From IMG/VR virus record IMGVR_UViG_3300042890_006166, positions 1-64,000 of that record: a stretch of DNA of 64,000 nucleotides; one strand, given 5' to 3'. The stretch is from a virus. The translations under genes were made by a program, and so were the position numbers. Under the pieces are notes generated by a model. The model saw nothing but the letters and a program-made list of their open reading frames with translations, was not told the DNA's origin and did no database searches. Positions 1 to 19,166 of this stretch are shown one piece after another (the stretch's first letter is position 1; the number at the start of each line of letters is the position of its first letter).

Positions 1-3000
1 GGTTCTTCTGGATCAAGTGGATCTTCAGGTTCTTCAGGAACATCTGGATCTTCTGGATCTTCTGGTTCTTCCGGAACCTCTGGATCTTCAGGTTCTTCTG
101 GATCAAGTGGATCATCGGGTTCTTCGGGAACATCAGGTTCTTCTGGGTCTAGCGGATCTTCTGGATCGTCGGGTTCATCCGGAACATCAGGTTCTTCGGG
201 TTCTAGTGGGACATCGGGTTCTTCTGGAACATCCGGTTCATCTGGATCAAGCGGATCATCTGGTTCTTCGGGAACATCCGGATCTTCAGGTTCTTCTGGA
301 TCAAGTGGATCTTCAGGTTCTTCAGGAACATCTGGATCTTCTGGATCTTCTGGTTCTTCCGGAACCTCTGGATCTTCAGGTTCTTCTGGATCAAGTGGAT
401 CATCGGGTTCTTCGGGAACATCAGGTTCTTCTGGGTCTAGCGGATCTTCTGGATCTTCCGGTTCTTCGGGATCTAGCGGATCTTCCGGATCCTCCGGTTC
501 ATCTGGATCTAGTGGATCTTCTGGTACAAGCGGGTCATCGGGTTCTTCTGGATCATCCGGTTCATCTGGATCTAGTGGATCCTCTGGTACATCCGGCTCT
601 TCTGGTTCAAGTGGATCCTCTGGGTCTTCTGGTACATCTGGATCAAGTGGATCTTCTGGATCATCTGGTTCTTCTGGAACATCTGGATCCTCTGGATCTT
701 CCGGTTCCTCTGGATCCTCCGGTTCATCTGGATCTAGTGGATCCTCTGGTACATCCGGCTCTTCTGGTTCAAGTGGATCCTCTGGGTCTTCTGGTACATC
801 TGGATCAAGTGGATCAAGTGGATCTTCTGGATCATCTGGTTCTTCTGGAACATCTGGATCTTCCGGTTCCTCTGGATCCTCCGGTTCATCTGGATCTAGT
901 GGATCTTCTGGTACATCCGGTTCATCTGGATCTAGTGGATCCTCAGGTACATCAGGTTCTTCTGGTTCGAGTGGATCCTCTGGATCTTCTGGTACATCTG
1001 GGTCTTCTGGATCAAGTGGATCTTCAGGTTCTTCTGGTACATCTGGATCTTCCGGTTCTTCTGGATCAAGCGGATCTTCTGGTTCTTCTGGTACATCTGG
1101 GTCTTCTGGATCAAGTGGATCTTCAGGTTCTTCAGGAACATCCGGATCTTCTGGTTCTTCTGGATCCAGTGGATCTTCTGGATCTTCGGGTTCTTCTGGA
1201 TCATCAGGTTCATCCGGAACATCGGGTTCTTCAGGTTCTAGCGGGTCATCAGGTTCTTCTGGAACATCTGGTTCATCTGGATCAAGCGGATCATCAGGTT
1301 CTTCCGGAACATCCGGATCTTCAGGTTCTTCAGGATCTAGCGGATCTTCTGGATCGTCTGGTTCTTCCGGAACATCGGGTTCTTCAGGTTCAAGCGGGTC
1401 GTCAGGTTCTTCTGGAACATCCGGGTCGTCAGGTTCTTCTGGATCTAGTGGATCATCAGGATCATCAGGATCTTCTGGTTCTTCTGGAACATCAGGATCT
1501 TCTGGTTCTTCTGGATCAAGTGGATCTTCAGGATCATCTGGTTCTTCTGGTTCTTCCGGAACCTCTGGTTCATCTGGATCCTCTGGTTCTAGTGGATCCT
1601 CTGGATCTTCAGGAACTTCTGGTTCTTCTGGATCCAGTGGATCTTCTGGTTCTTCAGGAACCTCTGGTTCATCTGGATCCTCTGGTTCTAGTGGATCATC
1701 GGGATCCTCTGGATCTTCAGGAACTTCTGGATCCAGTGGATCTTCTGGGTCATCAGGATCTTCTGGAACATCTGGTTCATCAGGATCTTCTGGATCTAGT
1801 GGATCCTCAGGATCATCCGGGTCTTCTGGAACATCTGGTTCTTCAGGATCATCTGGATCCAGCGGATCATCCGGGTCTTCTGGAACATCTGGTTCATCAG
1901 GATCATCTGGATCCAGCGGATCATCCGGGTCTTCTGGAACATCTGGTTCATCAGGATCTTCTGGATCTAGCGGATCTTCAGGATCATCAGGGTCTTCTGG
2001 AACATCTGGTTCTTCAGGATCATCTGGATCCAGCGGATCCTCCGGGTCTTCTGGAACATCTGGTTCATCAGGATCTTCTGGATCATCCGGTTCATCTGGA
2101 TCTAGTGGATCCTCTGGTACATCCGGCTCTTCTGGTTCGAGTGGATCCTCTGGTTCTTCTGGTTCTTCTGGATCATCAGGTTCATCCGGAACATCGGGTT
2201 CTTCAGGTTCTAGCGGGTCATCAGGTTCTTCTGGAACATCTGGTTCATCTGGATCAAGCGGATCATCAGGTTCTTCCGGAACATCCGGATCTTCAGGTTC
2301 TTCAGGGTCTAGCGGATCTTCTGGATCGTCTGGTTCTTCCGGAACATCGGGTTCTTCAGGTTCAAGCGGGTCGTCAGGTTCTTCTGGAACATCAGGTTCT
2401 TCAGGTTCTTCTGGATCTAGTGGATCATCAGGATCTTCTGGTTCTTCTGGAACCAGAGGAACTTCTGGTTCTTCTGGATCAAGTGGATCTTCAGGTTCTT
2501 CTGGATCCTCCGGTTCGTCTGGATCTTCTGGTTCTTCAGGAACCTCTGGTTCTTCAGGAACCTCTGGTTCATCTGGATCCTCTGGTTCTAGTGGATCCTC
2601 GGGATCCTCTGGTTCTTCAGGATCATCTGGATCCAGCGGATCATCCGGGTCTTCTGGAACATCTGGTTCTTCAGGATCTTCTGGATCTAGTGGATCCTCA
2701 GGATCATCCGGGTCTTCTGGAACATCTGGTTCTTCAGGATCATCTGGATCCAGCGGATCATCCGGGTCTTCTGGAACATCTGGTTCATCAGGATCTTCTG
2801 GATCTAGCGGATCTTCAGGATCATCCGGGTCTTCTGGAACATCTGGCTCTTCAGGATCATCTGGATCCAGCGGATCCTCCGGGTCTTCTGGAACATCTGG
2901 TTCATCAGGATCTTCTGGATCTAGCGGATCTTCTGGTTCGAGTGGATCTTCAGGATCTTCCGGAACGTCCGGTTCTTCTGGATCATCCGGTTCATCTGGA

Positions 3001-3420
3001 TCTAGTGGATCCTCTGGTACATCCGGCTCTTCTGGTTCAAGTGGATCATCCGGATCTTCTGGAACATCGGGATCTTCTGGTTCAAGTGGGTCATCGGGTT
3101 CTTCTGGATCATCCGGTTCATCTGGATCTAGTGGATCATCTGGTACATCCGGATCTTCCGGATCGTCTGGTTCTTCTGGAACATCAGGTTCTTCTGGAAC
3201 CAGAGGAACTTCTGGTTCTTCTGGATCAAGTGGATCTTCAGGATCATCTGGTTCTTCTGGAACATCAGGTTCTTCTGGATCAAGTGGATCGTCTGGATCT
3301 TCAGGTTCTTCTGGATCCTCCGGTTCATCTGGATCTAGTGGATCTTCTGGTACATCCGGTTCTTCTGGTACATCGGGATCTTCTGGAACCAGGGGAACTT
3401 CTGGTACATCTGGAACATCA
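1..3420 (+). repeat. Coding 9-nt (Gly-X-Y) tandem array, 380 triplets visible
   Basis: GGN every ninth base from nt 1 to 3420 (3420/9=380); X mostly Ser/Thr, Y mostly Ser; occasional GTR. Confidence 0.95.
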
Positions 3421-4020
3421 GTTTCTGTTTCGGGAACAACAAACACTGTAGTTAAATTCACAAGTTCAACAACAATAGGGAACTCCTCTATAACTGACAA
3501 TGGAACTGTTATTTCTTTGGGAAGTATCCCTGTTGCGATAGATTCAACTGGTAATACTGTCAAGATAAATGGAGCAGAACTTCAGACTAACGGCGGTAGT
3601 ATCAATATGAAAGCTGGAGGAAATATTGATGGAGATGGAACAAACATTTTGGACAACTTCGACATAATAAACGCAAATCAAAAGAATTTTGATATTCTTC
3701 ATCCTTCTAAAAAGGAACCATGGAGATTGAGATATTCGGTTTTGGAAGGTCCAGAAGTTGGTGTGTTTGTTAGGGGGCGTCTCCAAAATTGCAAAGAAAT
3801 CCTTTTACCTTATTATTGGGCGGATCTAATTCATTCTGATTCAATATCCGTAATTCTAACCCCTATAGGAAAGCCTTGTCTTTACTTCGTAGAAGAAATT
3901 CTAGATAACAAAATTTTAATTGGCGGCAATTGTGAAGAAATAAATCTTTTTTACACCGTTTTTGCCGAGAGAAAGGATGTTGAGCGTTTGGTAGTTGAAT
4001 ATATACAAAGTAATAAGTAA
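1..4020 (+). CDS. Giant Gly-X-Y (GSS/GTS) repeat fibre protein 1, 5'-truncated; C-terminal KxFxIxHP...LEGPE domain typical of phage tail-fibre C-termini
   Basis: Frame +1 from nt 1 reads GSSGSSGSSGSSGTSG... without a stop to 3420, then VSVSGTTNTVVKFTSSTTIGNSSITDNGT and continues in frame into the track's 3517..4020 ORF (TTG 3517 is internal). No start codon in the window, hence absent from the track. Confidence 0.85.
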   Translation, partial: GSSGSSGSSGSSGTSGSSGSSGSSGTSGSSGSSGSSGSSGSSGTSGSSGSSGSSGSSGSSGTSGSSGSSGTSGSSGTSGSSGSSGSSGSSGTSGSSGSSGSSGSSGSSGTSGSSGSSGSSGTSGSSGSSGSSGSSGSSGTSGSSGSSGSSGSSGSSGSSGSSGSSGSSGSSGSSGTSGSSGSSGSSGSSGSSGSSGTSGSSGSSGSSGSSGTSGSSGSSGSSGSSGTSGSSGSSGSSGSSGSSGSSGSSGTSGSSGSSGSSGSSGTSGSSGSSGSSGSSGSSGTSGSSGSSGSSGSSGSSGSSGTSGSSGSSGSSGTSGSSGSSGSSGSSGTSGSSGSSGSSGSSGTSGSSGSSGSSGSSGSSGTSGSSGSSGSSGSSGTSGSSGSSGSSGSSGSSGSSGSSGSSGTSGSSGSSGSSGSSGTSGSSGSSGSSGSSGTSGSSGSSGSSGSSGSSGSSGTSGSSGSSGSSGSSGTSGSSGSSGSSGSSGSSGSSGSSGTSGSSGSSGSSGSSGSSGSSGSSGTSGSSGSSGSSGSSGSSGTSGSSGSSGSSGSSGTSGSSGSSGSSGSSGSSGSSGTSGSSGSSGSSGSSGTSGSSGSSGSSGSSGSSGSSGTSGSSGSSGSSGSSGSSGTSGSSGSSGSSGSSGSSGTSGSSGSSGSSGSSGSSGSSGTSGSSGSSGSSGSSGSSGTSGSSGSSGSSGSSGSSGSSGTSGSSGSSGSSGSSGSSGSSGSSGTSGSSGSSGSSGSSGTSGSSGSSGSSGSSGTSGSSGSSGSSGSSGSSGSSGTSGSSGSSGSSGSSGTSGSSGSSGSSGSSGSSGSSGTRGTSGSSGSSGSSGSSGSSGSSGSSGSSGTSGSSGTSGSSGSSGSSGSSGSSGSSGSSGSSGSSGSSGTSGSSGSSGSSGSSGSSGSSGTSGSSGSSGSSGSSGSSGTSGSSGSSGSSGSSGSSGSSGTSGSSGSSGSSGSSGSSGTSGSSGSSGSSGSSGSSGSSGSSGTSGSSGSSGSSGSSGSSGTSGSSGSSGSSGSSGTSGSSGSSGSSGSSGSSGSSGSSGSSGTSGSSGSSGSSGTSGSSGTRGTSGSSGSSGSSGSSGSSGTSGSSGSSGSSGSSGSSGSSGSSGSSGSSGTSGSSGTSGSSGTRGTSGTSGTSVSVSGTTNTVVKFTSSTTIGNSSITDNGTVISLGSIPVAIDSTGNTVKINGAELQTNGGSINMKAGGNIDGDGTNILDNFDIINANQKNFDILHPSKKEPWRLRYSVLEGPEVGVFVRGRLQNCKEILLPYYWADLIHSDSISVILTPIGKPCLYFVEEILDNKILIGGNCEEINLFYTVFAERKDVERLVVEYIQSNK

Positions 4021-4022
4021 TC

Positions 4023-7000
4023 ATGCCAACCGGACCTTTTGGAACTTCAGGAAAAAACATACAGATTGAACCTAGGCAAGGTACTCTTAAATTCTTTGGT
4101 GCCGGGGGTACTGCTGAAAATCAGCCAATAACTTTTCAGGTGTTGGACAATGGTTCAATTAGAATATATCCTTCTGGACAGAGCGATTCAATTTTTATTC
4201 AGGCAACAGGGGCAACAGCTGGAAATGTACTTATTAACGATGCTTCTTTTGTAAAAGGGAGTGGTTTAATTCTTCCTATTTTTAATGACATAAATTCTGT
4301 ACCTAATCCAGCAGTGGGGATGATAATTTTTAATTCCTCGGATGGACAAATTTATAGATATACCGGTTCCGGATGGCAAGTTTCTGCCGGAACTTCCGGT
4401 ACATCCGGATCAAGTGGTTCTTCTGGATCATCTGGTTCTTCTGGAACTTCGGGATCATCCGGATCGAGTGGATCTTCAGGATCCTCTGGCTCTTCTGGAA
4501 CTAGAGGAACATCTGGATCTAGTGGATCTTCAGGATCCTCTGGTTCTTCTGGTACATCCGGATCTTCTGGATCATCCGGTTCAAGTGGATCCTCGGGATC
4601 CTCTGGCTCTTCTGGATCTTCTGGAACTTCAGGTTCATCTGGTTCAAGTGGATCTTCAGGATCCTCTGGTTCTTCTGGATCATCTGGTTCTTCTGGATCT
4701 TCGGGTTCTTCTGGATCTTCGGGTTCTTCTGGAACTTCTGGTTCATCTGGATCTAGTGGATCTTCTGGTACATCAGGTTCTTCTGGATCGAGTGGATCTT
4801 CTGGATCGTCTGGTTCTTCTGGATCGAGTGGAACTTCTGGATCATCTGGTTCTTCTGGAACTTCTGGTTCATCTGGATCTAGTGGTTCTTCTGGATCATC
4901 TGGTTCTTCTGGGTCGAGTGGATCTTCTGGATCATCTGGTTCTTCTGGAACATCTGGTTCATCTGGATCGAGCGGATCTTCGGGGTCTTCTGGATCTAGT
5001 GGATCTTCGGGATCATCAGGTTCTTCTGGAACTTCGGGTTCATCGGGATCTTCTGGATCTAGCGGATCTTCAGGTTCATCCGGATCTAGCGGATCCTCTG
5101 GTTCTTCTGGTTCATCTGGTTCGAGTGGATCCTCGGGATCTAGCGGATCTTCTGGTTCATCTGGATCTTCAGGTACTTCTGGACTATCTGGTGTAAATGG
5201 TACATCTGGAACTAGTGGATCCTCGGGATCTAATGGTACTTCTGGACTATCTGGTGTAAATGGTACATCAGGAACTAGTGGCTCATCGGGATCTTCTGGT
5301 TCTTCTGGTTCGAGTGGATCCTCGGGATCGTCTGGCTCTTCTGGAACATCTGGTTCTTCAGGATCCTCCGGATCTAGCGGATCATCGGGTTCTTCCGGTA
5401 CAAGAGGAACGTCTGGTTCATCGGGATCTTCTGGTTCTTCTGGTTCGAGTGGTTCTTCTGGATCTAGCGGATCATCTGGATCTAGCGGAACATCTGGATC
5501 TTCTGGTTCGAGTGGATCTTCAGGATCATCTGGATCTTCTGGAACGTCTGGTTCTTCGGGCTCCAGTGGATCTTCGGGGTCATCAGGTTCTTCTGGAACA
5601 TCCGGTTCGTCAGGATCATCTGGTTCTTCTGGTTCATCGGGATCCTCTGGATCTAGCGGATCTTCTGGTTCTTCTGGAACCTCTGGTTCATCTGGATCAA
5701 GTGGATCCTCAGGTTCTTCTGGTTCTTCCGGAACCTCAGGCTCTTCTGGTACTATGGGAACATCTGGTTCGTCAGGATCATCTGGTTCTTCGGGATCTTC
5801 TGGTTCGAGTGGATCATCAGGATCCTCAGGATCTTCTGGAACATCAGGTTCATCTGGATCTAGCGGATCCTCTGGGTCTTCCGGAACTTCAGGCTCTTCT
5901 GGTACTAGGGGAACCTCAGGTTCATCAGGATCCTCTGGATCTAGTGGGTCATCTGGTTCAAGTGGATCCTCGGGATCGTCTGGTTCTTCTGGAACTTCAG
6001 GTTCATCTGGATCCTCTGGATCTAGCGGATCATCTGGATCTTCTGGAACATCTGGTTCATCAGGATCATCTGGTTCTTCGGGATCTTCTGGTTCTAGTGG
6101 ATCCTCGGGATCTTCTGGAACATCAGGTTCATCTGGATCTAGCGGATCTTCTGGATCTTCTGGAACATCAGGTTCATCTGGATCCTCTGGATCTAGCGGA
6201 TCATCTGGCTCTTCTGGAACATCTGGTTCATCAGGATCATCTGGTTCTTCGGGATCTTCTGGTTCAAGTGGATCCTCAGGATCTTCTGGAACATCAGGTT
6301 CATCTGGATCCTCTGGATCTAGCGGATCCTCTGGCTCTTCTGGAACATCTGGTTCATCAGGATCTAGTGGATCCTCTGGTTCTTCCGGAACTTCAGGCTC
6401 TTCTGGTTCTTCGGGATCTTCTGGTTCGAGTGGATCCTCAGGATCATCAGGATCTTCTGGAACATCTGGTTCATCTGGATCTAGTGGATCCTCTGGTTCT
6501 TCCGGAACTTCAGGCTCTTCTGGTACTAGGGGAACCTCAGGTTCATCAGGATCCTCTGGATCTAGTGGGTCATCTGGTTCAAGTGGATCCTCAGGATCGT
6601 CTGGTTCTTCTGGAACTTCAGGATCATCAGGATCTTCTGGAACATCAGGTTCATCTGGATCTAGTGGATCTTCTGGATCGTCTGGTACTAGAGGAACTTC
6701 TGGTTCATCTGGATCTAGCGGATCGTCTGGATCTTCTGGAACATCAGGTTCATCTGGATCTAGTGGATCTTCTGGATCGTCTGGCTCTTCTGGTTCAAGC
6801 GGATCTTCTGGGTCATCAGGTTCTTCTGGAACATCTGGTTCATCTGGATCTAGCGGATCTTCTGGATCTTCTGGTTCATCTGGATCTAGCGGATCTTCCG
6901 GATCATCTGGAACTTCTGGTTCATCTGGATCCTCTGGATCTAGCGGATCTTCTGGCTCTTCTGGTTCGAGTGGATCTTCAGGATCATCAGGATCTTCTGG

Positions 7001-10000
7001 AACATCAGGTTCATCTGGATCTAGTGGATCTTCTGGGTCATCAGGTTCTTCTGGAACATCTGGTTCATCTGGATCTAGCGGATCGTCTGGATCTTCTGGA
7101 ACATCAGGTTCATCTGGATCTAGTGGATCTTCTGGAACATCAGGTTCATCTGGATCTAGTGGATCTTCTGGATCGTCTGGTTCTTCTGGAACTTCAGGTT
7201 CATCTGGATCCTCTGGATCTAGCGGATCTTCAGGATCATCAGGATCTTCTGGAACATCTGGTTCATCTGGATCTAGCGGATCTTCTGGCTCTTCTGGTTC
7301 GAGTGGATCTTCAGGATCATCAGGATCTTCTGGAACATCAGGTTCATCTGGATCTAGCGGATCTTCCGGATCATCTGGAACTTCTGGTTCATCAGGATCC
7401 TCTGGATCTAGCGGATCGTCTGGATCTTCTGGAACATCAGGTTCATCTGGATCTAGTGGATCTTCTGGATCGTCTGGCTCTTCTGGTTCAAGCGGATCTT
7501 CTGGGTCATCAGGTTCTTCTGGAACATCTGGTTCATCTGGATCTAGCGGATCTTCTGGATCGTCTGGTACTAGAGGAACTTCTGGTTCATCTGGATCAAG
7601 TGGATCGTCTGGATCTTCTGGTTCGAGCGGATCTTCAGGATCATCAGGATCTTCTGGAACATCAGGTTCATCTGGATCTAGCGGATCTTCTGGATCGTCT
7701 GGTTCATCTGGATCTAGCGGATCTTCCGGATCATCTGGAACTTCTGGTTCATCAGGATCCTCTGGATCTAGCGGATCTTCAGGATCATCAGGATCTTCTG
7801 GAACATCTGGTTCATCTGGATCTAGCGGATCTTCTGGCTCTTCTGGTTCGAGTGGATCTTCAGGATCATCAGGATCTTCTGGAACATCAGGTTCATCTGG
7901 ATCTAGTGGATCTTCTGGATCGTCTGGTACTAGAGGGACTTCTGGTTCATCTGGATCTAGCGGATCTTCCGGATCATCTGGAACTTCTGGTTCATCAGGA
8001 TCCTCTGGATCTAGCGGATCTTCTGGCTCTTCTGGTTCGAGTGGATCTTCAGGATCATCAGGATCATCTGGAACTTCTGGTTCATCAGGTTCATCTGGAT
8101 CTAGTGGATCTTCTGGATCGTCTGGTTCTTCTGGAACTTCAGGTTCATCTGGATCCTCTGGATCTAGCGGATCTTCAGGATCATCAGGATCTTCTGGAAC
8201 ATCTGGTTCATCTGGATCTAGCGGATCTTCTGGATCGTCAGGTTCATCTGGATCTAGCGGATCTTCCGGATCATCCGGATCTTCTGGAACATCAGGTTCA
8301 TCTGGATCTAGTGGATCTTCTGGTTCTTCTGGTACTAGAGGAACTTCTGGTTCATCAGGATCTAGTGGATCTTCTGGTTCGAGTGGATCTTCAGGATCAT
8401 CAGGATCTTCTGGAACATCAGGTTCATCTGGATCTAGCGGATCGTCTGGATCTTCTGGAACATCAGGTTCATCTGGATCTAGTGGATCTTCTGGATCGTC
8501 AGGTTCATCTGGATCTAGCGGATCTTCCGGATCATCTGGATCTTCTGGAACATCAGGTTCATCTGGATCTAGCGGATCTTCTGGGTCATCAGGTTCTTCC
8601 GGAACATCTGGTTCATCTGGATCTAGTGGATCTTCTGGATCTTCTGGTTCGAGTGGATCTTCAGGATCATCAGGATCTTCTGGAACATCAGGTTCATCTG
8701 GATCTAGTGGATCTTCTGGGTCATCAGGTTCTTCTGGAACATCTGGTTCGTCAGGATCTTCTGGAACATCTGGTTCATCTGGATCTAGCGGATCTTCTGG
8801 TTCTTCTGGTTCTTCCGGAACCTCAGGCTCTTCTGGTACTAGAGGAACATCTGGTTCGTCAGGATCATCCGGTTCTTCAGGATCTTCTGGTTCAAGTGGA
8901 TCCTCAGGATCATCCGGATCTTCTGGAACCTCTGGTTCATCGGGATCTTCTGGATCTAGCGGATCTTCTGGTTCTTCTGGTTCGAGTGGATCTTCAGGAT
9001 CATCTGGATCTTCTGGAACGTCTGGTTCTTCGGGATCTAGTGGATCTTCAGGATCATCCGGATCTTCTGGAACCTCTGGTTCATCAGGATCCTCTGGATC
9101 TAGCGGATCTTCTGGTTCTTCTGGTTCGAGTGGATCTTCTGGGTCATCAGGTTCTTCTGGAACTTCTGGTTCATCGGGATCCAGTGGATCTTCTGGGTCA
9201 TCAGGTTCTTCTGGAACGTCTGGTTCGTCAGGATCTTCTGGTTCTTCTGGTTCGAGTGGATCTTCGGGATCTAGTGGATCTTCAGGATCATCTGGATCTT
9301 CTGGAACGTCTGGTTCTTCGGGATCTAGTGGATCTTCAGGATCATCCGGATCTTCTGGAACCTCTGGTTCATCAGGATCCTCTGGATCTAGCGGATCTTC
9401 AGGATCATCCGGATCTTCTGGAACTTCTGGTTTTGCCACTTTATCTGGTTCTACTGATAATGGTGTATTAACTTTAAACGGTTCTTCACCCAACGTTACA
9501 GTAGAATCTGATTTAACTTACACTTCTCCTACTTTATCTTTTACAGGTACTGGCTCACCAACTACAGGTGCATCACAAATTTATTTAAATGGAGTTACAT
9601 CTAATAGGATTGATTTCAATACTAATGGAGCTGGTCCACCAGCATTCACAACAAGGAGTGCTGGTACTAAAGTTGTTCTTTATCCCAGTGTAGGTGCTGC
9701 TTCCGTAGACATTGGTATGGGATATATGGCTGACGGTGGTGTTCCTAGTATGTGGTATTCAATTATAGGATCAGCGGCTAATGGCGCTTACTATTGGTAT
9801 GCTGGTACAACACAAATAATGGCCTTAGTAAATTTAGCTGCTGGTACTAGAAGATTAGATTTGACTGCAGGTACAGTTACTAATCCATCGATCTCAGCAG
9901 GTTTAAATAGTGCTGATACAAACACTGGAATTTACTTTCCAGCAGCAGATACAATCGGATTCGTGGAAGGTGGAGTAGAGGTCATGAGGATCCATGACAC

Positions 10001-12578: not shown

Positions 12579-13232
12579 ATGTCTCAAAAAAAAATTATGA
12601 TTGGAACTCCGTGCTATGATGGAAAGGTTACCGCCCAATTTGCAGTTTCATTATTCTCAGCAATTAAAGAGGCATCTTTAAAAAAAATTGATTTAATCCC
12701 AATTTTTCTTTCCTATGATGCATTGGTACAAAGAGCCAGAAACGACCTTGTTAAATTAGCGGTTCAACATCAGGTAGAAAGTATAATTTTCATAGATCAT
12801 GATTTGGAATTTAACCCCCGATGGGTTGTTGAATTGGCAGAGAGCCCACTTGATGTTATTGGCGGAACATATCCAAAAAAAACAGATTCAAAGGAGATTT
12901 ATCCTATATCCGCCAATAATTTATCAGTCAATGAACATGGATTGATGCAGGTTGAAGGAATTGGTACTGGTTTCTTGAAACTGTCAAGAAAGGCCCTACT
13001 AACTTTATGGGAGAAAAGTTCAATCTATTGGAACGAAGGAGCCCAAAATCGAATGGTTTTTGATATTGGTATTGTTGAAGGAAACTTGATGAGTGAAGAT
13101 AGAATGATGTGTAAAAAATTAACAGATCTAGGTTTTAAAATTTGGTTAAATCCTTCTATGTGCTGTAAACACATCGGTGTTAAAATCTACGAAGGAAATT
13201 TTTTGGATTATTTATCAAGATTAAAAAAATAA
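12579..13232 (+). CDS. GT-A fold (GT2-like) glycosyltransferase
   Basis: IMIGTPCYDG, ARNDLV, FIDHD (DxD), GIGTGF, SED and GFKIWLNP..CKHIG motifs common in phage GT-A proteins. Confidence 0.7.
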   Translation: MSQKKIMIGTPCYDGKVTAQFAVSLFSAIKEASLKKIDLIPIFLSYDALVQRARNDLVKLAVQHQVESIIFIDHDLEFNPRWVVELAESPLDVIGGTYPKKTDSKEIYPISANNLSVNEHGLMQVEGIGTGFLKLSRKALLTLWEKSSIYWNEGAQNRMVFDIGIVEGNLMSEDRMMCKKLTDLGFKIWLNPSMCCKHIGVKIYEGNFLDYLSRLKK

Positions 13233-13264: not shown

Positions 13265-13283
13265 TAAAAATTAATAGAAATCT

Positions 13284-13592
13284 ATGGCCATTCAGATTAC
13301 AGGTTTATTCAAAAATCCAACCTCGCAATTAATCCACGAGTCTCCTCTTTTGAAGATCGTAGCCCATTTGTCTTTCCAAGGAAATTTGCACGTTGATCTT
13401 CATGTTGTCTCTGAAGATGGAATTCACAGAGATACTGTAGTTTTTTCAAACGTAGATCGCAGCAAGTTGAATTATGATATTTCAATTTCGGATTCTTATA
13501 ACAGCCTCATTCAGGCAATAGAAACTTTTGTTATTCCAGAACTACAATCCGCAAATTCGATTAATTCACAAGCAACATTTTCTCGCACATGA
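13284..13592 (+). CDS. Hypothetical protein
   Basis: 102-aa ATG ORF directly after a GATATATA motif, ATGA overlap with next gene. Confidence 0.7.
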   Translation: MAIQITGLFKNPTSQLIHESPLLKIVAHLSFQGNLHVDLHVVSEDGIHRDTVVFSNVDRSKLNYDISISDSYNSLIQAIETFVIPELQSANSINSQATFSRT

Positions 13593-13870
13593 ATAATATA
13601 GAAGAAACAGGAAAAGAAGAATATTCAGATATGATACAGCCAGAAGAATTAAAGAAAATTCAGGAATTCAGGAAATCTGGTGATATGTTCTTGGTTGAAT
13701 TCGGTTCTCTTAAGATGGAAGAAATTAATCTCCAAGAAAGGAAAAAAGAGACTGAAAGAAAATTTTTGAAATTTAAAGAGGAAGAAAAAAATTTTATGTC
13801 TCTCATGGAATATAAATATGGGAACGTCAGTTTAGACCTAGAAACTGGTATTTTAACTCCTATAAATTAA
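13589..13870 (+). CDS. Small coiled-coil protein, paralogue of 15117..15389
   Basis: PEELKKIQEFR...KYGNVSLDLETG aligns with PEELDRIQNLR...KYGEGKLDFNSG. Confidence 0.7.
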   Translation: MNNIEETGKEEYSDMIQPEELKKIQEFRKSGDMFLVEFGSLKMEEINLQERKKETERKFLKFKEEEKNFMSLMEYKYGNVSLDLETGILTPIN

Positions 13871-15024
13871 CGAGATTTTAGAAGTTCATTGTAGACTTCT
13901 GTCATTTTTTCTCCAGCATTTTTCCATGTAAAGATCTCACAGGTTTTTCTACCTTCTATTTTTAATTTCAACTTTTCTTCTTCTTTCAATTTCAATAAAT
14001 TTTCAAGGGATTTTTCAATTCCTTCTGGAGTTGGTTCTACCAACATTGAATTTCTTTCGTTTACAAAATCACCCAAACCATCTAAACGAGATGAAATCAA
14101 TATGGCACCGGAAGCAAAAGCTTCTAAAGCTACAATGCCAAATGGTTCATGAACGCTGGGCATGATTACTGCTTCTACAGAGTGCATGAGTTCAATTTTT
14201 TTCTGTCCATATAAAGGACCACAGAAAAATAAATTCTTTTTTTTCGAATCTAATTTAGCTTGAAGCAGATTTACACATTCTAAATCTCCTCCCTCAGATG
14301 ATCCAGCCACAATTAAATTAATCCCATCCGGAATATTTGCATTCATCAAATGATCAAACCCTTTCATTTTGGCAAATCTTCCGATGTATAGAACATTTAT
14401 ACCATTGTCCAAAGGTATTGAAACTTGGCTCTTAGGTATCCAAGAATCTAAATTGATTCCATTTGGAATAATTCTGATTTTCGAACGAAATTCTGGATAT
14501 ACGTCTTTGTAAAAACTTCCGACACCAACAATAATATCTGCACAATTTAACATCCCCGTTTCCAAACCCTCCAAAGTTTTTTGTGTGGTTAATCCATCGA
14601 AATTTTTGTCATCAAAAACAATTTTTAAATTTTTTTGGATTTGACCTCTTATACTTAAGCTCAAAGACATCACCAAAGGAACCCCATAATAAATGGCCAG
14701 ATGGTTAGCTACCAAGTAGCATGGCCAATCGTAGGCGTGAATCAAATCAGGTCGTTGAAATTTTAAAGAAGCTGTGAAATAATTAATTTGGTGTGCCAGA
14801 TTATAAATTAGAGGATTTCCTGGTTCTTTTGGGTCTGGTAAAAATGACGGGTAAATTTGTTTAGTATTAGGAAATGAAAATTGTGGGGTAAGGTGTGGAT
14901 AACAAACAGTGAATACCTCAAAATTCTCTTGTAAATAAGGATGTATATGTGTGTATTGAATTCCTAGTCCTCCCATAGGTTTTTCAAGCCTATCTGGGAC
15001 CAAACTTAAAATTTTAGGTTTCAT
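13867..15024 (-). CDS. GT-B fold GT4-family glycosyltransferase
   Basis: DLIHAYDW, IIPNGINL, VLYIGRFAKMKG, IMPSVHEPFGIVALEAFASG (E-x7-E motif). Only supported minus-strand gene. Confidence 0.85.
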   Translation of the reverse strand: MKPKILSLVPDRLEKPMGGLGIQYTHIHPYLQENFEVFTVCYPHLTPQFSFPNTKQIYPSFLPDPKEPGNPLIYNLAHQINYFTASLKFQRPDLIHAYDWPCYLVANHLAIYYGVPLVMSLSLSIRGQIQKNLKIVFDDKNFDGLTTQKTLEGLETGMLNCADIIVGVGSFYKDVYPEFRSKIRIIPNGINLDSWIPKSQVSIPLDNGINVLYIGRFAKMKGFDHLMNANIPDGINLIVAGSSEGGDLECVNLLQAKLDSKKKNLFFCGPLYGQKKIELMHSVEAVIMPSVHEPFGIVALEAFASGAILISSRLDGLGDFVNERNSMLVEPTPEGIEKSLENLLKLKEEEKLKLKIEGRKTCEIFTWKNAGEKMTEVYNELLKSR

Positions 15025-15039
15025 TCTTGAATTTCAGAT

Positions 15040-15105
15040 TGTACAGGAAAATTATAAAAAATTCCAAAGGATAGGATTGGAATATTTTGATGAAACAGGA
15101 GTACA
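15040..15105. promoter_or_regulatory. Putative divergent promoter pair TGGAAT-N16/17-GTACAA
   Basis: Minus: TGGAAT (15066-15061)...GTACAA toward the GT4 gene; plus: TGGAAT (15078-15083)...GTACAA (15101) toward ATG 15117. Confidence 0.4.
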
Positions 15106-15116
15106 AAAAAATAAAA

Positions 15117-15389
15117 ATGGAAAATCAAATTAAACTTACCCCTGAAGAATTGGATAGGATTCAAAATTTAAGGGAGGCAGCTCGAAATAACATTCAGCAG
15201 ATAGGTCAACTCAATGCCCAAAAATTCTTTCTTGAAAGAGAGGTAACCACGGTCGGTGAACAAATTCAAAACCTTTACCAAGAAACACTACAATTAAACG
15301 AAAACGAAAAACAGCTCGTGGATGAAATTGTCGCAAAATATGGTGAAGGAAAGTTAGATTTTAATTCTGGAGTTTATACAGTTTCTTAA
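15117..15389 (+). CDS. Small coiled-coil protein, paralogue of 13589..13870
   Basis: Start placed at ATG 15117 after an A-rich leader (track starts 15087); similarity to the paralogue begins at MENQIKLTPEE. Confidence 0.7.
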   Translation: MENQIKLTPEELDRIQNLREAARNNIQQIGQLNAQKFFLEREVTTVGEQIQNLYQETLQLNENEKQLVDEIVAKYGEGKLDFNSGVYTVS

Positions 15390-15420
15390 ATTGCAAATGA
15401 CAATTAGATCTTGATTGGTG

Positions 15421-15428
15421 GATATATA
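15421..15428 (+). promoter_or_regulatory. GATATATA putative late promoter
   Basis: Exact motif before ATG 15434. Confidence 0.65.
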
Positions 15429-15433
15429 AAATA

Positions 15434-16675
15434 ATGTCAATTTCCAGACCGTTTGCATATAACACAGGATCTCCTATAGCAGGTACCGAACAGATTGGCA
15501 ATCTGGCTATTGGATTTCCTACAGAAGGGTTCTCTTCTACTGGACTTGCTTGGTGGAATGGTCCTGACGAGCAGCTGGGTTATGTAGTTGCACAATCTGT
15601 TCCAGACAACAGTCAACCAACTCCGATAGAAGGAGTATTTGCCTCTGTTGGCTTTTTCAGATCCTCTGAATTAACAGAGTCTTCTTTCGTTGATTTGGCA
15701 AACACCTTAGCTGCAGGAGCGGATTCTTGGGCACCCAATCAAGGAGCACAGGCCAAAATTTGGTTGAACAATAATGGTTACTGGACATCATTTGAAGGGT
15801 CAATTGCACCCTCGAATACACCAACACCAAGCATGACTCCAACTTTAACCCCTACACCTACTGTTACGTCAACTTCAACCCCAACCCCAACACCAACAAA
15901 TACACCAACAATTCCAAGCCAAGATATAAATCAAACAGGTTTGGTTCTTTATACCAATATGTCCAATAGTTCAAGTTATCCAGGAACAGGAACAAGTGTA
16001 TTTGATTTATCACCAAATGGGTATACAGGAACAATAATTAACTCTGAAAATGTTTCTTATGTTGGTGGATCAACAAAATCATTACAATTTAATAACGCCA
16101 TATCATCTTCGCCATACATCGATTGGGGTCTTGGAGCTTCTTTAGTACGTAGTGCGAGTGAAATAACAGTTTGTGTATTCTTAAGACAAATAAGTATTCC
16201 ACACGGAAACACTGGTTTCAGATGGTCAGCACTTATTAATTTGGATTTTTGTTCGGGTGCGAACAGGAAGTTTAGTTTTTATATGTATAATACTTCAAAT
16301 AATGTAAACGTTGCACCAAATATTGCTCTTGATTTTTTTGATGGTGTTGGTGGTGGTGTTGGTTTTACATTAACATCAGCAAACTGGATTAATCAAGACC
16401 TTTATATTGTTGCAAGTTGTAAATCGGGTACAAATAATGCCAAAGCATATATCAATGGTGTTCTACAATCACCAACAAAGAATGGTTTGGTTGTTAATCC
16501 GACACCAAGTGGTGCTAATAGTAATTTAATGACGGGTAGAGGCCCCGGTTCTTGTTTTGATGGTTATATTGGTGAAAGTAATTTGTATTCAATACACATT
16601 TACGATAGAACTCTGACTGACGCCGAAGTATTATCAAACTATAATATTCTGAAAACACAATTCAATATAGCATAA
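15434..16675 (+). CDS. Probable virion protein with Pro/Thr linker and C-terminal LamG/ConA-like lectin domain
   Basis: (TP)n linker; GLVLY...SSYPGTGTSVFDLSPNG...LQFN...AYING...IHIYDRTLTDAEVLSNYN pattern. Confidence 0.7.
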   Translation: MSISRPFAYNTGSPIAGTEQIGNLAIGFPTEGFSSTGLAWWNGPDEQLGYVVAQSVPDNSQPTPIEGVFASVGFFRSSELTESSFVDLANTLAAGADSWAPNQGAQAKIWLNNNGYWTSFEGSIAPSNTPTPSMTPTLTPTPTVTSTSTPTPTPTNTPTIPSQDINQTGLVLYTNMSNSSSYPGTGTSVFDLSPNGYTGTIINSENVSYVGGSTKSLQFNNAISSSPYIDWGLGASLVRSASEITVCVFLRQISIPHGNTGFRWSALINLDFCSGANRKFSFYMYNTSNNVNVAPNIALDFFDGVGGGVGFTLTSANWINQDLYIVASCKSGTNNAKAYINGVLQSPTKNGLVVNPTPSGANSNLMTGRGPGSCFDGYIGESNLYSIHIYDRTLTDAEVLSNYNILKTQFNIA

Positions 16676-16679
16676 AACA

Positions 16680-16853
16680 ATGATCACATACAAATTTGAA
16701 ATAGGGGATAGAGTAAAAACATTAGGTGACGTTCCTTTGTATGGTACTATTGTTGAAATATATCCAAGAGACAATTTTACAATTTATAGAATTAATCTTG
16801 ATAATTACAATTTGCATATAGCTGAAAATGAAAATAACATAGAATTGGAGTAA
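16680..16853 (+). CDS. 57-aa SH3/KOW-like hypothetical protein (below track threshold)
   Basis: ATG 16680 to TAA 16851-16853: MITYKFEIGDRVKTLGDVPLYGTIVEIYPRDNFTIYRINLDNYNLHIAENENNIELE; fills the gap between flanking genes. Confidence 0.65.
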   Translation: MITYKFEIGDRVKTLGDVPLYGTIVEIYPRDNFTIYRINLDNYNLHIAENENNIELE

Positions 16854-16926
16854 AAACTAAAAAGTTTGAAACAATAAAAATGTTTATTTATTAATTCATA
16901 ATAACAGAATTCTAATTAAAAATTAA

Positions 16927-17988
16927 ATGTTAGATCCTTCCTTTTCTCTTAGAAAATTAAAATACAATTTAACTCAAACTTTATACGACGTAGAACAATC
17001 TATTTCAGAAATTTCAGGTAACAAACCCAGGATCCTTTTCGTTGCTCCTCATCTCTCCACCGGAGGGATGCCTCAGTACCTTTATAAATGTATTGAGTGC
17101 CTGTTGCCTTTTTCCGAAATATTCTGTGTTGAATATAACAATCTTTCCGATCAATTCACAGTTCAGAGAGAAAGAATTCAAAACCTTTTGGGAGAAAATT
17201 ACTTCAGATTGGACTCGGAAGACAAGAGTGAATTCCTAGAAATTATTCATCGGGTGTGTCCTGACGTTATTCATTTTCAAGATTTTGTGGAATTTTTCCT
17301 TGGTAACGAGATGTGTGAGAAAATTTATGTTCCAAATAGACCCTGGTTTATCTTTGAGACCTGCCATTCTTCAAACAACAAACCATCTGATAAATTTTGG
17401 TGTCCAGATAAAATCGTGATGGTCAACAAATGGATGTTAAAAGTTTTCGAAAATTCTGGTTTTAATTTGGACTTGTTGGAATATCCAATTGAAAATTTCG
17501 AAAGTATTGGGAAAGAAAAAGCTATAAATTTATTGGGTTTAGACCCTGACAAAAAACATGTTATCAACGTTGGTCTTTTCACACAAGGAAAAAACCAAGG
17601 AGAATTAATTGAATTCGCCAGAGAGATGACACATCTTCCGATAGAGTTTCATTTCGTGGGAAATCTCGCCTGTAACTTTCAGGAATACTGGGAGCCAATC
17701 CTTCAAAATGTGCCAGAAAATTGTAGAGTTTGGGGGGAAAGATCCGATACTGATTTATTTTTTCAAGCTGCTGATTTGTTTGTTTTCAATTCAGTCTGGG
17801 AGTTGAATCCCATTGTAATAAAAGAATCTTTATCATGGAAACTCCCTATCATGATGAGAAGATTGCCTTCGTATATGGATGATTATGATAACAATCCTCT
17901 AGTTCATTATTTTTCCTCAGATGTTGAAAAATCAGGAAAAGCTTACAACACTCGTCTCATTCAAGAAATTTTAGGTTTTAATTCATGA
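16927..17988 (+). CDS. GT-B fold GT4-family glycosyltransferase
   Basis: RILFVAPHLSTGGMPQY, INVGLFTQGKNQ, AADLFVFNSVWELNPIVIKESL; ATGA overlap with the heptosyltransferase. Confidence 0.8.
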   Translation: MLDPSFSLRKLKYNLTQTLYDVEQSISEISGNKPRILFVAPHLSTGGMPQYLYKCIECLLPFSEIFCVEYNNLSDQFTVQRERIQNLLGENYFRLDSEDKSEFLEIIHRVCPDVIHFQDFVEFFLGNEMCEKIYVPNRPWFIFETCHSSNNKPSDKFWCPDKIVMVNKWMLKVFENSGFNLDLLEYPIENFESIGKEKAINLLGLDPDKKHVINVGLFTQGKNQGELIEFAREMTHLPIEFHFVGNLACNFQEYWEPILQNVPENCRVWGERSDTDLFFQAADLFVFNSVWELNPIVIKESLSWKLPIMMRRLPSYMDDYDNNPLVHYFSSDVEKSGKAYNTRLIQEILGFNS

Positions 17989-19166
17989 AAAATAAAGGTA
18001 TAGATGTTTATAAAAATGTGGTAAAAGACCTTAGGTGTAGGGTCAAAGACACTTTTGATTTCAAATTTAGTTTTGATTATGGCCCCAAAGTTGATATGGT
18101 TGGAAATAATCCAAAAACTAAAAGAACCATAAAATACAAAGATCTAAACACCAATCATTATGTTTTCGAGACAGAAACCAGTCCTGGATTATTTACGTCG
18201 GTTTTCAGAAGATGGTTTACCCCATGGCGAGTAGAGGTTTACGAAGGAACCAAAGAAATCTGGAGTTTTGACTTTGAGTCTTCTCTTCACAAACAGAAAA
18301 TTTTGGTTTCTATTGATTCCTCTTCATTAGGAGATACTTTGGCCTGGGTTCCGGTGGTAGAGGCTTTACGGAATAAATATCAGGCAGATGTTATTGTTAC
18401 TACCTTTTGGAATTCTTTACTAACGCAATTTTTTCCACAACTTAAATTTTTCCCACCCGGATACAGGGATCATTCCGCTAAGGCAGTTTTTGGTGTTGGC
18501 TGGTACGAAGAGGAAGATAGAAATTGTCATCGCAGAGATCCTAGATCTATTTCTTTACAACAGGTGGCAGGAGATATCCTGGGGATAGATGTTAAAACTG
18601 ATTTACTTCCTCCACAACTTCCTAATTGGTTGTATAGCTTGCCTCCAAGAGAATCCGGAAAATATGTTTGTTTGGCTACAGAGTCTACAGCCAATGCCAA
18701 ACACTGGCACTACGAAAAGGGATGGCAGACAATAGTGGATTACCTTCGAATACTTGGTTATGAAGTTCGGGTCATTCACAAACAAAACAACACTTTAGAG
18801 AGTGTGGTAGATAAAACCGGGGACCGAGATATTTTACAAAGAATGGCCGATATCTATCAAGCAGATTTTTTTATCGGCATTGGTTCTGGACTTTCCTGGC
18901 TAGCGTGGTTTTTGCAAAAACCAGTGGTTATGATTTCTGGGTTTTCCGATCCATCCTGTGAATTTTCGAGAATGAATTATAGGGTTATCAATAGAAATGT
19001 GTGTCACGGGTGTTTCAACGACGTAAAATATAAGTTTGATCGTGGAGATTGGAACTGGTGTCCTAGATTGAAAAATACAGAAAGAATGTTTGAGTGTACC
19101 ACAAAGCTGAGTCCACAACTTGTGATTGAACAAATTAATTTACTTATACAAGAGCAAGGTTTGTAG
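17985..19166 (+). CDS. tibC/aah-like: TibC/AAH-family (autotransporter-type) protein O-heptosyltransferase
   Basis: SLGDTLAWVP (TibC TLGD catalytic Asp), YVCLATESTANAKHW...GW, FFIGIGSGLSWLAW...PVVMISGFS.P..EF, and the four-Cys iron site CHGC...WCPR.KNT.R.FECT; full length including N-terminal beta-barrel. Confidence 0.85.
   Translation: MKNKGIDVYKNVVKDLRCRVKDTFDFKFSFDYGPKVDMVGNNPKTKRTIKYKDLNTNHYVFETETSPGLFTSVFRRWFTPWRVEVYEGTKEIWSFDFESSLHKQKILVSIDSSSLGDTLAWVPVVEALRNKYQADVIVTTFWNSLLTQFFPQLKFFPPGYRDHSAKAVFGVGWYEEEDRNCHRRDPRSISLQQVAGDILGIDVKTDLLPPQLPNWLYSLPPRESGKYVCLATESTANAKHWHYEKGWQTIVDYLRILGYEVRVIHKQNNTLESVVDKTGDRDILQRMADIYQADFFIGIGSGLSWLAWFLQKPVVMISGFSDPSCEFSRMNYRVINRNVCHGCFNDVKYKFDRGDWNWCPRLKNTERMFECTTKLSPQLVIEQINLLIQEQGL

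Follow-up and report, generated by a model that had tools for sequence, protein, structure and literature searches.

The DNA analysed here (the window, 64,000 nucleotides) is the start of a 126.7-kb IMG/VR jumbo myovirus contig from a large uncultured lake-water phage. Two giant fibre genes and a block of glycosyltransferase (GT) genes lie just 5' of neck, terminase and sheath genes, i.e. inside the virion module; in the T4 gene order, gp12 and wac are found at the matching place. The following features are relevant:

1..4020, plus strand: fibre A, frame 1, 5'-truncated by the contig end, with 380 GSS/GTS triplets and a 190-aa C-terminal domain
4023..12560, plus strand: fibre B, 2845 aa, with a 122-aa N-terminal domain, a Gly-X-Y array, beta-helix-like NNVAxG/NTTG repeats and a C-terminal chaperone domain
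4389..9437, plus strand: Gly-X-Y array of fibre B, residues 123-1805
12240..12437, plus strand: Peptidase_S74 intramolecular chaperone domain of fibre B (E 3.9e-11)
12579..13232, plus strand: GT-A fold glycosyltransferase with an invariant DxD motif (D73, D75)
13284..13870, plus strand: two small ORFs of 102 and 93 aa, kept in close relatives
13867..15024, minus strand: GT4a, GT4 / Glycos_transf_1, 54-92% identical among relatives and missing in some
15087..15389, plus strand: 100-aa coiled-coil protein, directly 5' of GT4b
15434..16675, plus strand: 413-aa protein, C-terminal part like the virion structural proteins phrog_24074 and phrog_8510
16927..17988, plus strand: GT4b, GT4 / Glycos_transf_1, with an invariant EX7E motif (E292, E300)
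17985..19166, plus strand: homologue of TibC/Aah-family (BAHT) protein O-heptosyltransferases, 393 aa, full length, with all known functional residues
19234..21783, plus strand: neck / head-closure-like protein, 849 aa
45321..46319, plus strand: HldA-type heptose kinase (TIGR02198, PfkB)

A sequence-only reading of this DNA had placed a GT-A, two GT4 and a TibC/AAH-like gene 3' of the fibre genes, and all four are present there; every element of that reading was confirmed at the positions it gave. The 93-aa ORF is a coiled-coil paralogue of the 100-aa protein, whose gene directly precedes GT4b in almost every clade relative with sufficient upstream flank. The 413-aa protein occurs in the nearest relatives only. 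That the two small ORFs encode fibre assembly factors is a guess.

The array of fibre A consists of 380 uninterrupted triplets (312 GSS, 65 GTS and 3 GTR) and that of fibre B of 561 (among them 460 GSS and 85 GTS; 1008 Ser and 95 Thr), both devoid of Pro and in line with the earlier estimate of at least 380 and 560 triplets, mostly of Ser and Thr. The C-terminal domain of fibre A matches phrog_17490 and phrog_28536, families of no assigned function. In fibre B, the array is followed by about 60 'NNVAxGxxALxxNTTG' repeats and then by the Peptidase_S74 domain, which is indicative of trimeric fibres and spikes in phages, and the C-terminal part matches PHROG families of virion structural proteins, tail spikes and tail fibres with E-values down to 2e-132. 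If such arrays are indeed glycosylated fibres, this would flag a recurrent annotation error, namely ORF calls on the wrong strand in Gly-X-Y arrays, in which several frames are open.

As in collagen, Gly occupies every third position over the entire length of both arrays; the stabilising Pro/Hyp or charged residues of collagen are lacking, as X and Y are almost all Ser and Thr. With the collagen rise of 0.286 nm per residue, the fibre B array would be about 0.48 µm long if it adopted a collagen-type helix. It is possible, though in our view doubtful, that the arrays are instead disordered, mucin-like Gly/Ser spacers carrying their glycans as a bottle-brush, an explanation that concerns the structure only, is compatible with glycosylation and is not exclusive of the other explanations. 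Gly/Ser-rich sequences are classic flexible linkers, the absence of Pro and near absence of charged residues would leave a triple helix with little to stabilise it, and other TibC-linked proteins contain mucin-like TPTQ or poly-Thr tracts. However, the DNA of the arrays is only 66-73% self-identical and the protein repeat near perfect, indicating that synonymous codons were scrambled and that recent slippage is not the cause; a Gly register that stays unbroken over 561 and 380 triplets despite about 70% DNA self-identity suggests selection on that register. The trimer-associated S74 domain at the end of fibre B likewise speaks against mere spacers. Pro-poor collagen helices, exemplified by BclA and worm cuticle collagen, can gain stability from O-glycans on Thr/Ser, and a glycan might stabilise the triple helix of the arrays studied here.

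The protein encoded at 17985..19166 was identified beforehand as TibC/AAH-like, and a search against TIGR04414 (hepto_Aah_TibC) gave 266.7 bits over profile positions 11-372 of 374 (confirmed on the genome; curated equivalog cut-off 200 bits). The TibC sequence of PDB 4RAP was matched with E 5e-54. In agreement with the profile search, the AF2 model (pLDDT 86.5) superimposes on 4RAP with a TM-score of 0.81 (about 382 columns, rmsd about 3 Å) and has the architecture of a BAHT protomer, comprising an N-terminal beta-barrel, a GT-B catalytic domain and an iron-finger insert. In TibC, Asp110 is the catalytic base, Thr226, Lys230, Arg286 and Trp305 bind the sugar and C339, C342, C358 and C370 coordinate a structural ferric ion (PMC4358343). 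The phage protein aligns D117, T235, K239, R286 and W305 to the former residues and C340, C343, C359 and C371 to the latter, and these cysteines are invariant in 14-16 phage homologues, so that the iron finger is putatively kept; R286 is replaced in some more distant phage homologues. By every sequence and fold test, the protein is a true TibC relative and hence a predicted protein O-heptosyltransferase, for which we infer donor and acceptor.

The TibC dodecameric ring holds six substrate molecules (PMC4358343). As phage fibres often need dedicated chaperones, the TibC-like protein might mainly be a ring-shaped scaffold for fibre folding and assembly with little or no transferase role. We regard this as exceedingly improbable: none of the 14-16 aligned phage homologues, which go down to 32% identity, deviates at the catalytic Asp, T226, K230 or W305 (TibC numbering), a kinase of the heptose pathway is encoded by the phage, and in phages the TibC domain is fused not only to GT4 but also to FkbM methyltransferase and pyruvyl transferase domains.

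A further explanation follows the usual interpretation of 'LPS genes' in cyanomyoviruses and pelagimyophages, whose GT and rfaE genes were read as tools for envelope remodelling in the P-SSM2 (PMC1079782) and pelagimyophage (PMC7029224) papers. The GT cluster would then modify the LPS core or other surface glycans of the host, leading to superinfection exclusion or keeping progeny from re-adsorbing, and the fibres would be bystanders. Such a function would suit the GT4 and GT-A families, which build mostly polysaccharides and glycolipids, as well as GT4b, whose best NCBIfam matches are glycolipid glucosyltransferases, and the GT9 relatives WaaC and WaaF are LPS heptosyltransferases. The TibC-like enzyme, however, lies above the protein-specific Aah/TibC cut-off and reaches only 28.6 bits with the profile of LPS heptosyltransferase I (cut-off 185), and its model resembles WaaC and WaaF with TM-scores of only about 0.5. 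Neither a flippase, a polymerase or a priming transferase nor a TM-like segment was found in any protein of the fibre/GT cluster. Moreover, envelope remodelling leaves the tight linkage to Gly-X-Y or S/T-rich fibres across differing syntenies (see below) unexplained, and we thus consider it improbable.

GT4b is a conserved partner of the TibC-like enzyme. It adjoins the TibC domain in 15 phage loci and is fused to it, as an N-terminal domain, in 15 others (at least 30 together), and it is absent from 63 of 63 classical cellular TibC loci. A model of the complex of both enzymes reached an ipSAE of 0.70 compared to 0.02 for the best control and passed a mark that 58 out of 80 solved complexes and 2 out of 110 mismatched pairs attain. 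Between runs, the contacts agreed to at least 94%, and the pLDDT of the partner was at least 87. Extension of the glycan by the other GTs, previously raised as a possibility, is supported by this complex model and by GT4b being a conserved or fused partner. For the GT-A enzyme (AF2 pLDDT 94.9), the top Foldseek matches were STIV A197 and the human collagen glycosyltransferases COLGALT1 and LH3, a likeness at the general GT-A level only (TM about 0.5-0.57).

The TibC gene adjoins the gene of its substrate (PMC4358343). Near the phage gene, no autotransporter (type V secretion) substrate was recognised; its neighbours are the Gly-X-Y phage fibres. The sequence-only reading had named in advance, as its refuting case, related genomes whose TibC homologues are not linked to Ser-rich fibres; the linkage was found: 34 of 59 IMG/VR viral loci, and 15 of the 20 with full flanks, have a Gly-X-Y ORF of at least 15 triplets within 6.6 kb of TibC (median distance 3.3 kb), and 31 of these 34 ORFs are S/T-rich. 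None of 98 control loci from the phage's own clade has one (Fisher p 9e-19), the baseline being these same-clade loci and not the collection-wide frequency of Gly-X-Y ORFs. Since the fibre is located upstream, downstream or on the opposite strand, the linkage does not reflect one inherited synteny. The same pairing occurs in the cultured Microcystis phage Mel-JY01. Among the five Gly-X-Y-negative loci with full flanks, at least three have S/T-rich repeat proteins beside the enzyme, the repeats being a poly-Thr tail, TPTQ mucin-like repeats and an NTASG beta-helix.

The linkage extends to certain cellular enzymes. In the phylogenetic tree, all phage enzymes group with 16 cellular ones and are set apart from 63 classical cellular BAHTs by a 100* split. 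Only two of the 63 have a Gly-X-Y neighbour, neither of which is S/T-rich, compared to 12 of the 16 in the phage-type clade. On an Arenicellales chromosome, a TibC-like gene lies among housekeeping genes, with genes on its flanks that encode small lipoproteins ending in (GSS/GTS)n-polyAsp, and this locus is an independent, non-phage linkage to the same GSS/GTS repeat.

But, is the GSS array really the acceptor, or is it another phage protein, such as the NNVAxG/NTTG repeats of fibre B or a neck, sheath or capsid protein? The known BAHT acceptors are Ser residues in strand-loop-strand turns of beta-helices (PMC4358343; TIGR04414 name), and the NNVAxG/NTTG repeats come closest in shape to the passenger repeats of AIDA-I and TibA. 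The locus with the NTASG beta-helix fibre fits such an acceptor, as does the relative G002, which has TibC, GT4b and GT-A and in whose 123 kb (52% complete) no Gly-X-Y ORF was found. Mycobacteriophages glycosylate capsid and tail tube according to the account of Freeman 2023 given in PMC12619734. Nevertheless, we consider a different acceptor rather unlikely, as fibre A and many linked fibres elsewhere have Gly-X-Y arrays without beta-helix repeats of this kind, in bacterial loci of the phage-type clade the enzyme is accompanied by small (GSS)n lipoproteins devoid of a beta-helix, and GAQ-type collagen-like arrays keep recurrent GSSGTSG patches.

With regard to the sugar donor, the gene at 45321, noted before as a heptose kinase, is of the HldA type and matches TIGR02198 with E 7e-93 and 311 bits, just below the equivalog cut-off of 345 bits (PfkB: E 1e-34). 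It encodes the sole step of the ADP-heptose pathway found in the phage contig: its 126 kb (about 46% of the genome) showed no gmhA, gmhB, hldC domain or hldD, and searches for gmhA and the hldC domain also found none in the relative G001 (85% complete) and in four further TibC phages, the relatives covered including two TibC phages that are 100% complete. The phage hence depends on its host for the donor. HldA is kept within the phage's own clade and confined to it; TibC phages outside this clade lack it, including two that are 100% complete. Given this limited distribution and the replacement of R286 in distant homologues, heptose may not be the general sugar. The central claim of the sequence-only reading, that the phage heptosylates its own fibres, is supported in part and by comparison: enzyme identity and linkage speak in its favour, the pathway genes not found beyond HldA and the lack of a Gly-X-Y ORF in the 123 kb of G002 against it.

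On balance, we think it probable, albeit far from certain, that this phage module O-glycosylates its own giant Gly-Ser-Ser fibres, most likely with heptose, a reading built directly on the enzyme family, the preserved active site, the linkage of the genes and a partner GT that lies next to the enzyme or is fused to it. TibC hyperglycosylates Ser of repeat proteins in the cytoplasm and is active on peptides, too (PMC4358343). Likewise, late in infection, the TibC-like enzyme and GT4b would form a soluble complex in the cytoplasm of the host and O-glycosylate serines of the phage fibres, with the fibre B array (4389..9437) as proposed main acceptor region. The TibC-like enzyme would most likely add heptose from host-made ADP-heptose, the flux of which may be boosted by the phage HldA kinase, and GT4b, GT4a and the GT-A enzyme would then extend or vary the glycan. 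The expected product is a trimeric, glycan-sheathed fibre of several hundred nm attached near neck or baseplate, in which the glycan could stabilise the helix, shield against proteases or adsorption, or serve host binding.

To our knowledge, protein O-heptosylation has been found only in proteobacterial autotransporter adhesins and phage virion glycosylation only on capsid and tail tube tails of mycobacteriophages, and we know of no experiment showing a heptose-based coating of phage fibres. A BAHT module acting on collagen-like fibres would widen both fields. It would also explain the function of Pro-free Gly-Ser-Ser arrays hundreds of nm long, offer an alternative reading of many 'LPS genes' annotated in aquatic myoviruses and yield enzymes with which a simple, genetically encoded repeat may be loaded with many sugars. 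Heptosylation of the fibres lends itself to a direct test in the cultured carrier Mel-JY01 and in E. coli, a bacterium with its own ADP-heptose supply. More tentatively, the distinct TibC-like clade paired or fused with GT4 might be a general machine for hyperglycosylation of Gly-Ser/Thr-Ser arrays. In phages, it would make glycan-stabilised, half-micrometre fibres out of Pro-free collagen-like proteins, with O-heptosyl-serine in the job of hydroxyproline, and in some bacteria it would act on (GSS)n-polyAsp lipoproteins. Protein O-heptosylation would thereby gain a novel class of acceptors, and virion glycosylation a novel form widespread among aquatic jumbo phages.

Among known systems, mycobacteriophages likewise use phage GTs on their own structural proteins; as far as the account of Freeman et al. 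2023 (PMC10527164) given in PMC12619734 goes, non-BAHT enzymes act there on the C-terminal tails of capsid and tail tube subunits, and neither heptose nor a collagen-like fibre is involved. Closest are TibC-TibA and Aah-AIDA-I of E. coli (TIGR04414; PDB 4RAP/4RB4; PMC4358343), which belong to the same family by HMM, fold and all known functional residues. By analogy, the phage locus would follow the same Ser/ADP-heptose logic, with the gene of a cytoplasmic enzyme beside that of a long Ser-rich repeat protein. Differences concern the neighbour (an autotransporter beta-helix in E. coli, a Gly-X-Y virion fibre in the phage), the separate clade of the phage enzyme, its adjacent or fused GT4 partner, which classical BAHT loci lack, and the stereoselectivity position, occupied by Gly in the phage enzyme, Pro300 in TibC and Ser294 in Aah. 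Serine-rich repeat glycoproteins of Gram-positive bacteria are modified in the cytoplasm by GtfA-GtfB, a GT4 with a second GT-B-fold protein, and their glycan is extended by further GTs. This resembles the phage module in that a GT4-containing complex deals with very long Ser-rich repeats; in contrast, the second component is of an unrelated family, GlcNAc is transferred and the proteins modified are secreted adhesins, not virion parts. Glycosylated Gly-X-Y surface fibres with dedicated enzymes are also known from Bacillus anthracis (BclA) and Mimivirus (collagens with L230). Both differ from the phage by having no BAHT enzyme, no heptose and no Pro-free GSS array, with rhamnose-anthrose glycans on GPT repeats in BclA and modification of hydroxylysine in Mimivirus. 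The Mimivirus collagens are, however, a viral precedent for sugar-bearing collagen-like fibres (for giant-virus glycans, see the review PMC9614988).

Large terminase, tail sheath, portal, prohead protease, head and neck proteins were all recognised by PHROG and Pfam matches in the window, the opening 64 kb of an IMG/VR viral contig of 126,669 bp (about 46% complete according to CheckV); by its gene content, the phage is therefore classified as a large T4-like myovirus. Metagenomes of lakes and freshwater in 17 studies (2016-2025) contain DNA near-identical to positions 12561-22560 (at least 70% of sampled words), with no RNA run listed among the matches; the phage thus has a wide distribution in lakes. 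Megablast of 21 kb of the window against INPHARED phages yielded no match. The features relevant here are:

1-4020 (frame 1): fibre A, leaving the contig at its 5' end; 380 uninterrupted Gly-X-Y triplets (312 GSS, 65 GTS, 3 GTR), then a 190-aa C-terminal domain
4023-12560: fibre B, 2845 aa in four parts: N-terminal domain (122 aa); 561 uninterrupted triplets (460 GSS, 85 GTS); a long run of 'NNVAxGxxALxxNTTG' repeats of about 15 residues each; Peptidase_S74 chaperone domain (E 3.9e-11)
12579-13232 (+): GT-A enzyme
13867-15024 (-): GT4a, GT4 / Glycos_transf_1
16927-17988 (+): GT4b, GT4 / Glycos_transf_1, EX7E motif invariant
17985-19166 (+): TibC-like enzyme
19234-21783: neck / head-closure-like protein, 849 aa
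22577-24376: large terminase
42075-45310: a tandem pair of portal paralogues of 541 and 535 aa, each matching phrog_213
45321-46319 (+): HldA-type kinase
Elsewhere in the window: tail sheath, 1187 aa; prohead protease and major head protein

The family of the enzyme at 17985-19166, taken for TibC/AAH-like in the sequence-only reading, is established by an HMM search: it scores 266.7 bits against TIGR04414, the Aah/TibC (BAHT) model with a cut-off of 200, over nearly the whole profile, compared to only 28.6 bits (cut-off 185) for LPS heptosyltransferase I. It matches the TibC structure 4RAP (E 5e-54), and its AF2 model (pLDDT 86.5) establishes the fold, with a TM score of 0.81 to TibC over about 382 columns compared to about 0.5 for WaaC/WaaF. 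In TibC, D110 is the catalytic base, T226, K230, R286 and W305 contact the sugar, C339, C342, C358 and C370 form the iron finger, and P300 (Ser294 in Aah) sets the selectivity between D,D- and L,D-heptose (PMC4358343). The alignment identifies D117, T235, K239, R286, W305 and C340/343/359/371 as counterparts, and Gly at the selectivity position.

The remaining enzymes were likewise recovered as claimed, the two GT4 genes by their family matches and the GT-A gene by structure. The latter gave only weak family matches, but its model (pLDDT 94.9) adopts a GT-A fold, with the DxD motif invariant in an alignment of 32 sequences out of 309 homologues; the nearest structures in a fold search were STIV A197, human COLGALT1, LH3, Mnn9 and PBCV-1 A64R. 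PDB sequence searches with GT4b and with the GT-A profile returned no matches. Two coiled-coil paralogues of about 95-100 aa are encoded at 13589-13870 and 15087-15389; where clade relatives have sufficient flank, the second nearly always immediately precedes GT4b. Both may act in fibre assembly or as chaperones.

Both claimed fibre genes (at least 380 and 560 triplets) were confirmed by counting, with nearly all triplets being GSS or GTS. The C-terminal 1019 residues of fibre B match PHROG families of virion structural proteins, tail spikes and tail fibres (E to 2e-132); Pfam gave no match for the C-terminus of fibre A, the N-terminus of fibre B or a 413-aa ORF. The arrays are also open in further frames and on the opposite strand (e.g. 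3-3563 and 4352-9493, both minus), but frame 1 alone runs on into domains with homologues. DNA self-identity within the arrays is only 66-73% and serine codons are mixed, therefore the perfect protein register was probably kept by selection and does not appear to stem from recent slippage. Neither array contains a single proline. As collagen-type helices, the arrays would give fibre lengths of about 0.33 µm or more (A) and about 0.48 µm (B); the rival reading is that these unbroken triplet runs are disordered, not helical.

Both contig ends fall inside GSS/GTS arrays, and contig ends also truncate 25 of the 34 Gly-X-Y ORFs linked to the enzyme in related loci; such arrays seem to be where the assembly breaks. 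A third GSS/GTS ORF lies outside the window (contig 120633-126668) and leaves the 3' contig end. It comprises 576 triplets in two arrays separated by a 160-aa insert, and represents either the 5' portion that fibre A lacks or a fibre gene of its own. As a separate observation, the NNVAxG repeats of fibre B (9900-12000) hold dozens of N-T-T and N-A-T sequons (N-X-S/T), the motif of HMW1C-type cytoplasmic N-glycosyltransferases; no enzyme of this type was seen in the window.

Does the enzyme travel with such fibres? A scan of IMG/VR yielded 59 loci with TibC homologues (32-66% identity), 34 of which contain a Gly-X-Y ORF of at least 15 triplets (S/T-rich in 31 of the 34); the distance to the enzyme gene has a median of 3.3 kb and a maximum of 6.6 kb. 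No ORF of this kind was found in 98 control loci of the same phage clade (80 sheath-centred and 18 HldA-centred, 1.23 Mb; Fisher p 9e-19), a baseline that applies to this clade and not to the whole collection. The sheath query returned relatives at 80-98% identity only and thus served for the synteny survey and the same-clade control; the GT4a query, with two near-identical loci only, was of no use as control. The gene linkage, whose absence would have spoken against the sequence-only reading, is hence established. The position of the fibre gene varies (upstream, downstream, opposite strand), and some linked fibres with GAQ-type collagen arrays retain recurrent GSSGTSG patches. In most negative loci the contig stops a few kb or less from the enzyme; where at least 8 kb are available on each side, 15 of 20 contain a Gly-X-Y ORF. 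In at least three of the five full-flank negatives, other S/T-rich repeat proteins adjoin the enzyme (IPT-like repeats with a poly-Thr tail, TPTQ mucin-like repeats, an NTASG beta-helix), and in G002, a related contig (52% complete), TibC, GT4b and the GT-A enzyme are present and no Gly-X-Y ORF was found in 123 kb. A rival reading is that another protein is the acceptor. G002 also carries, besides its canonical copy, a second, shorter and very divergent TibC-like ORF of 291 aa (contig 77933-78748; L145 7901-8773).

In the cultured Microcystis phage Mel-JY01, three genes follow one another: a GTS/GSS ORF (202 triplets), one for a 'structural protein' and one for a GT4-TibC fusion of 1226 aa. 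Its GenBank record annotates minus-strand CDSs across the Gly-X-Y array (L002 1-3052); the region most likely represents a plus-strand GTS/GSS fibre gene.

The fusion illustrates a second association. Among the phage loci, 15 have a GT4b homologue next to the TibC gene, 15 have both in one ORF and 20 have it elsewhere in the locus, some of these 20 with a second, fused GT4 domain; none of the 63 classical cellular loci has one. This establishes GT4b as a fused or adjacent partner. In the fusions, Pfam places a GT1-group domain N-terminal to the GT9 domain, and some add FkbM methyltransferase, DXD-GT, SAM-methyltransferase or pyruvyl-transferase domains. A complex model of GT4b with the TibC-like enzyme reached an ipSAE of 0.70 (runs 0.70-0.72; best control 0.02). 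Of 80 solved complexes, 58 attained this mark, and of 110 mismatched pairs, 2 did. At least 94% of contacts agreed between runs, and the partner pLDDT was at least 87. In the model, contact is made through the N-terminal helix of the TibC-like protein, a segment that serves as linker in the fusions. The model thus supports binding of GT4b to the TibC-like enzyme. A rival reading, in which the TibC-like protein acts as a scaffold only, is unlikely given its aligned catalytic and sugar-contact residues.

The family is also found in cells, with at least 582 homologues in a scan of 185,579 species genomes. A quick FastTree analysis of 134 sequences, in which some branches are long and only the main split was used, separates two groups (support 100). 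Group 1 comprises 63 cellular enzymes of Burkholderiales, Enterobacterales, Lentisphaerae and Selenomonadales, with Gly-X-Y neighbours at 2 of 63, none S/T-rich. Group 2 unites all phage enzymes with 16 cellular ones, and Gly-X-Y neighbours occur at 12 of these 16. In a complete Arenicellales chromosome (L172 7890-12600), a group 2 enzyme and a DUF6502 gene lie amid housekeeping genes and are therefore not part of a prophage. The enzyme is flanked by three small lipoproteins consisting of a lipobox, (GSS/GTS)n and poly-Asp, one of them with a CarboxypepD_reg-like domain; related Gammaproteobacteria show the same arrangement (also L168-L175, L244). Such loci may represent a bacterial O-glycosylated lipoprotein system; of the independent hints at the repeat itself as the possible acceptor, this pairing outside phages is the strongest.

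Among clade relatives (sheath 80-98% identical) with enough flank, the order is 100-aa ORF, GT4b, TibC, neck, 261-aa ORF and TerL, with one exception, in which a GT4-TibC fusion lies about 10 kb further upstream. TibC identities within the clade are 53-66% compared to 65-98% for TerL, neck and sheath, and the other GTs also diverge much faster; in L003-L016, aligned to 12579-24376, values are 64% for TibC, 71% for GT4b and 54% for GT4a, with 90-93% for neck and terminase. The fibre and GT block thus appears to behave like a hypervariable host-recognition island. In the T4 map, gp12 and wac stand just before the neck genes; the block occupies the same position, which suggests that the fibres are neck whiskers or short-fibre analogues.

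Regarding the sugar, the kinase at 45321-46319, claimed as heptose-7-phosphate kinase, is a PfkB-family protein matching RfaE domain I (E 7e-93; 311 bits, just below the 345-bit equivalog cut-off). Co-occurrence with heptose genes, suggested as a check in the sequence-only reading, was seen in part: HldA is conserved across the clade of this phage, but the 126-kb contig (about 46% complete) yielded no gmhA, gmhB, hldC domain or hldD. Four other TibC phages, two of them with 100%-complete genomes, lack HldA, and none of the four has gmhA or hldC. The phage must therefore draw on the nucleotide-sugar pool of its host, and its kinase can do no more than raise the flux through a pathway already present. 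With all four sugar-contact residues and HldA present, heptose is our best guess here; for the distant homologues without R286 this assignment is less certain.

We propose that the phage fibre, chiefly its GSS array, would be the acceptor, that heptose would be attached to Ser as first sugar and extended by the other GTs, and that the glycan would stabilise or shield the fibre. Alternatively, the GTs might remodel the host envelope; no protein of the fibre/GT cluster has TM-like segments, and in cyanomyoviruses and pelagimyophages Gly-X-Y fibres and 'LPS genes' were interpreted as host-surface functions (PMC1079782; PMC7029224). DNA as target was set aside, as BAHT enzymes act specifically on protein and the linked genes encode fibres, not base-modification enzymes. 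Our literature search found no paper connecting TibC/BAHT enzymes with phages or phage virions. The phage precedent is mycobacteriophage glycosylation (Freeman 2023, as cited in PMC12619734), which concerns capsid and tail tube, whereas the acceptors proposed here are Gly-X-Y fibres. The enzyme family and the idea of virion glycosylation are thus known; new are the proposed acceptor class, the obligate partner and the biological setting.
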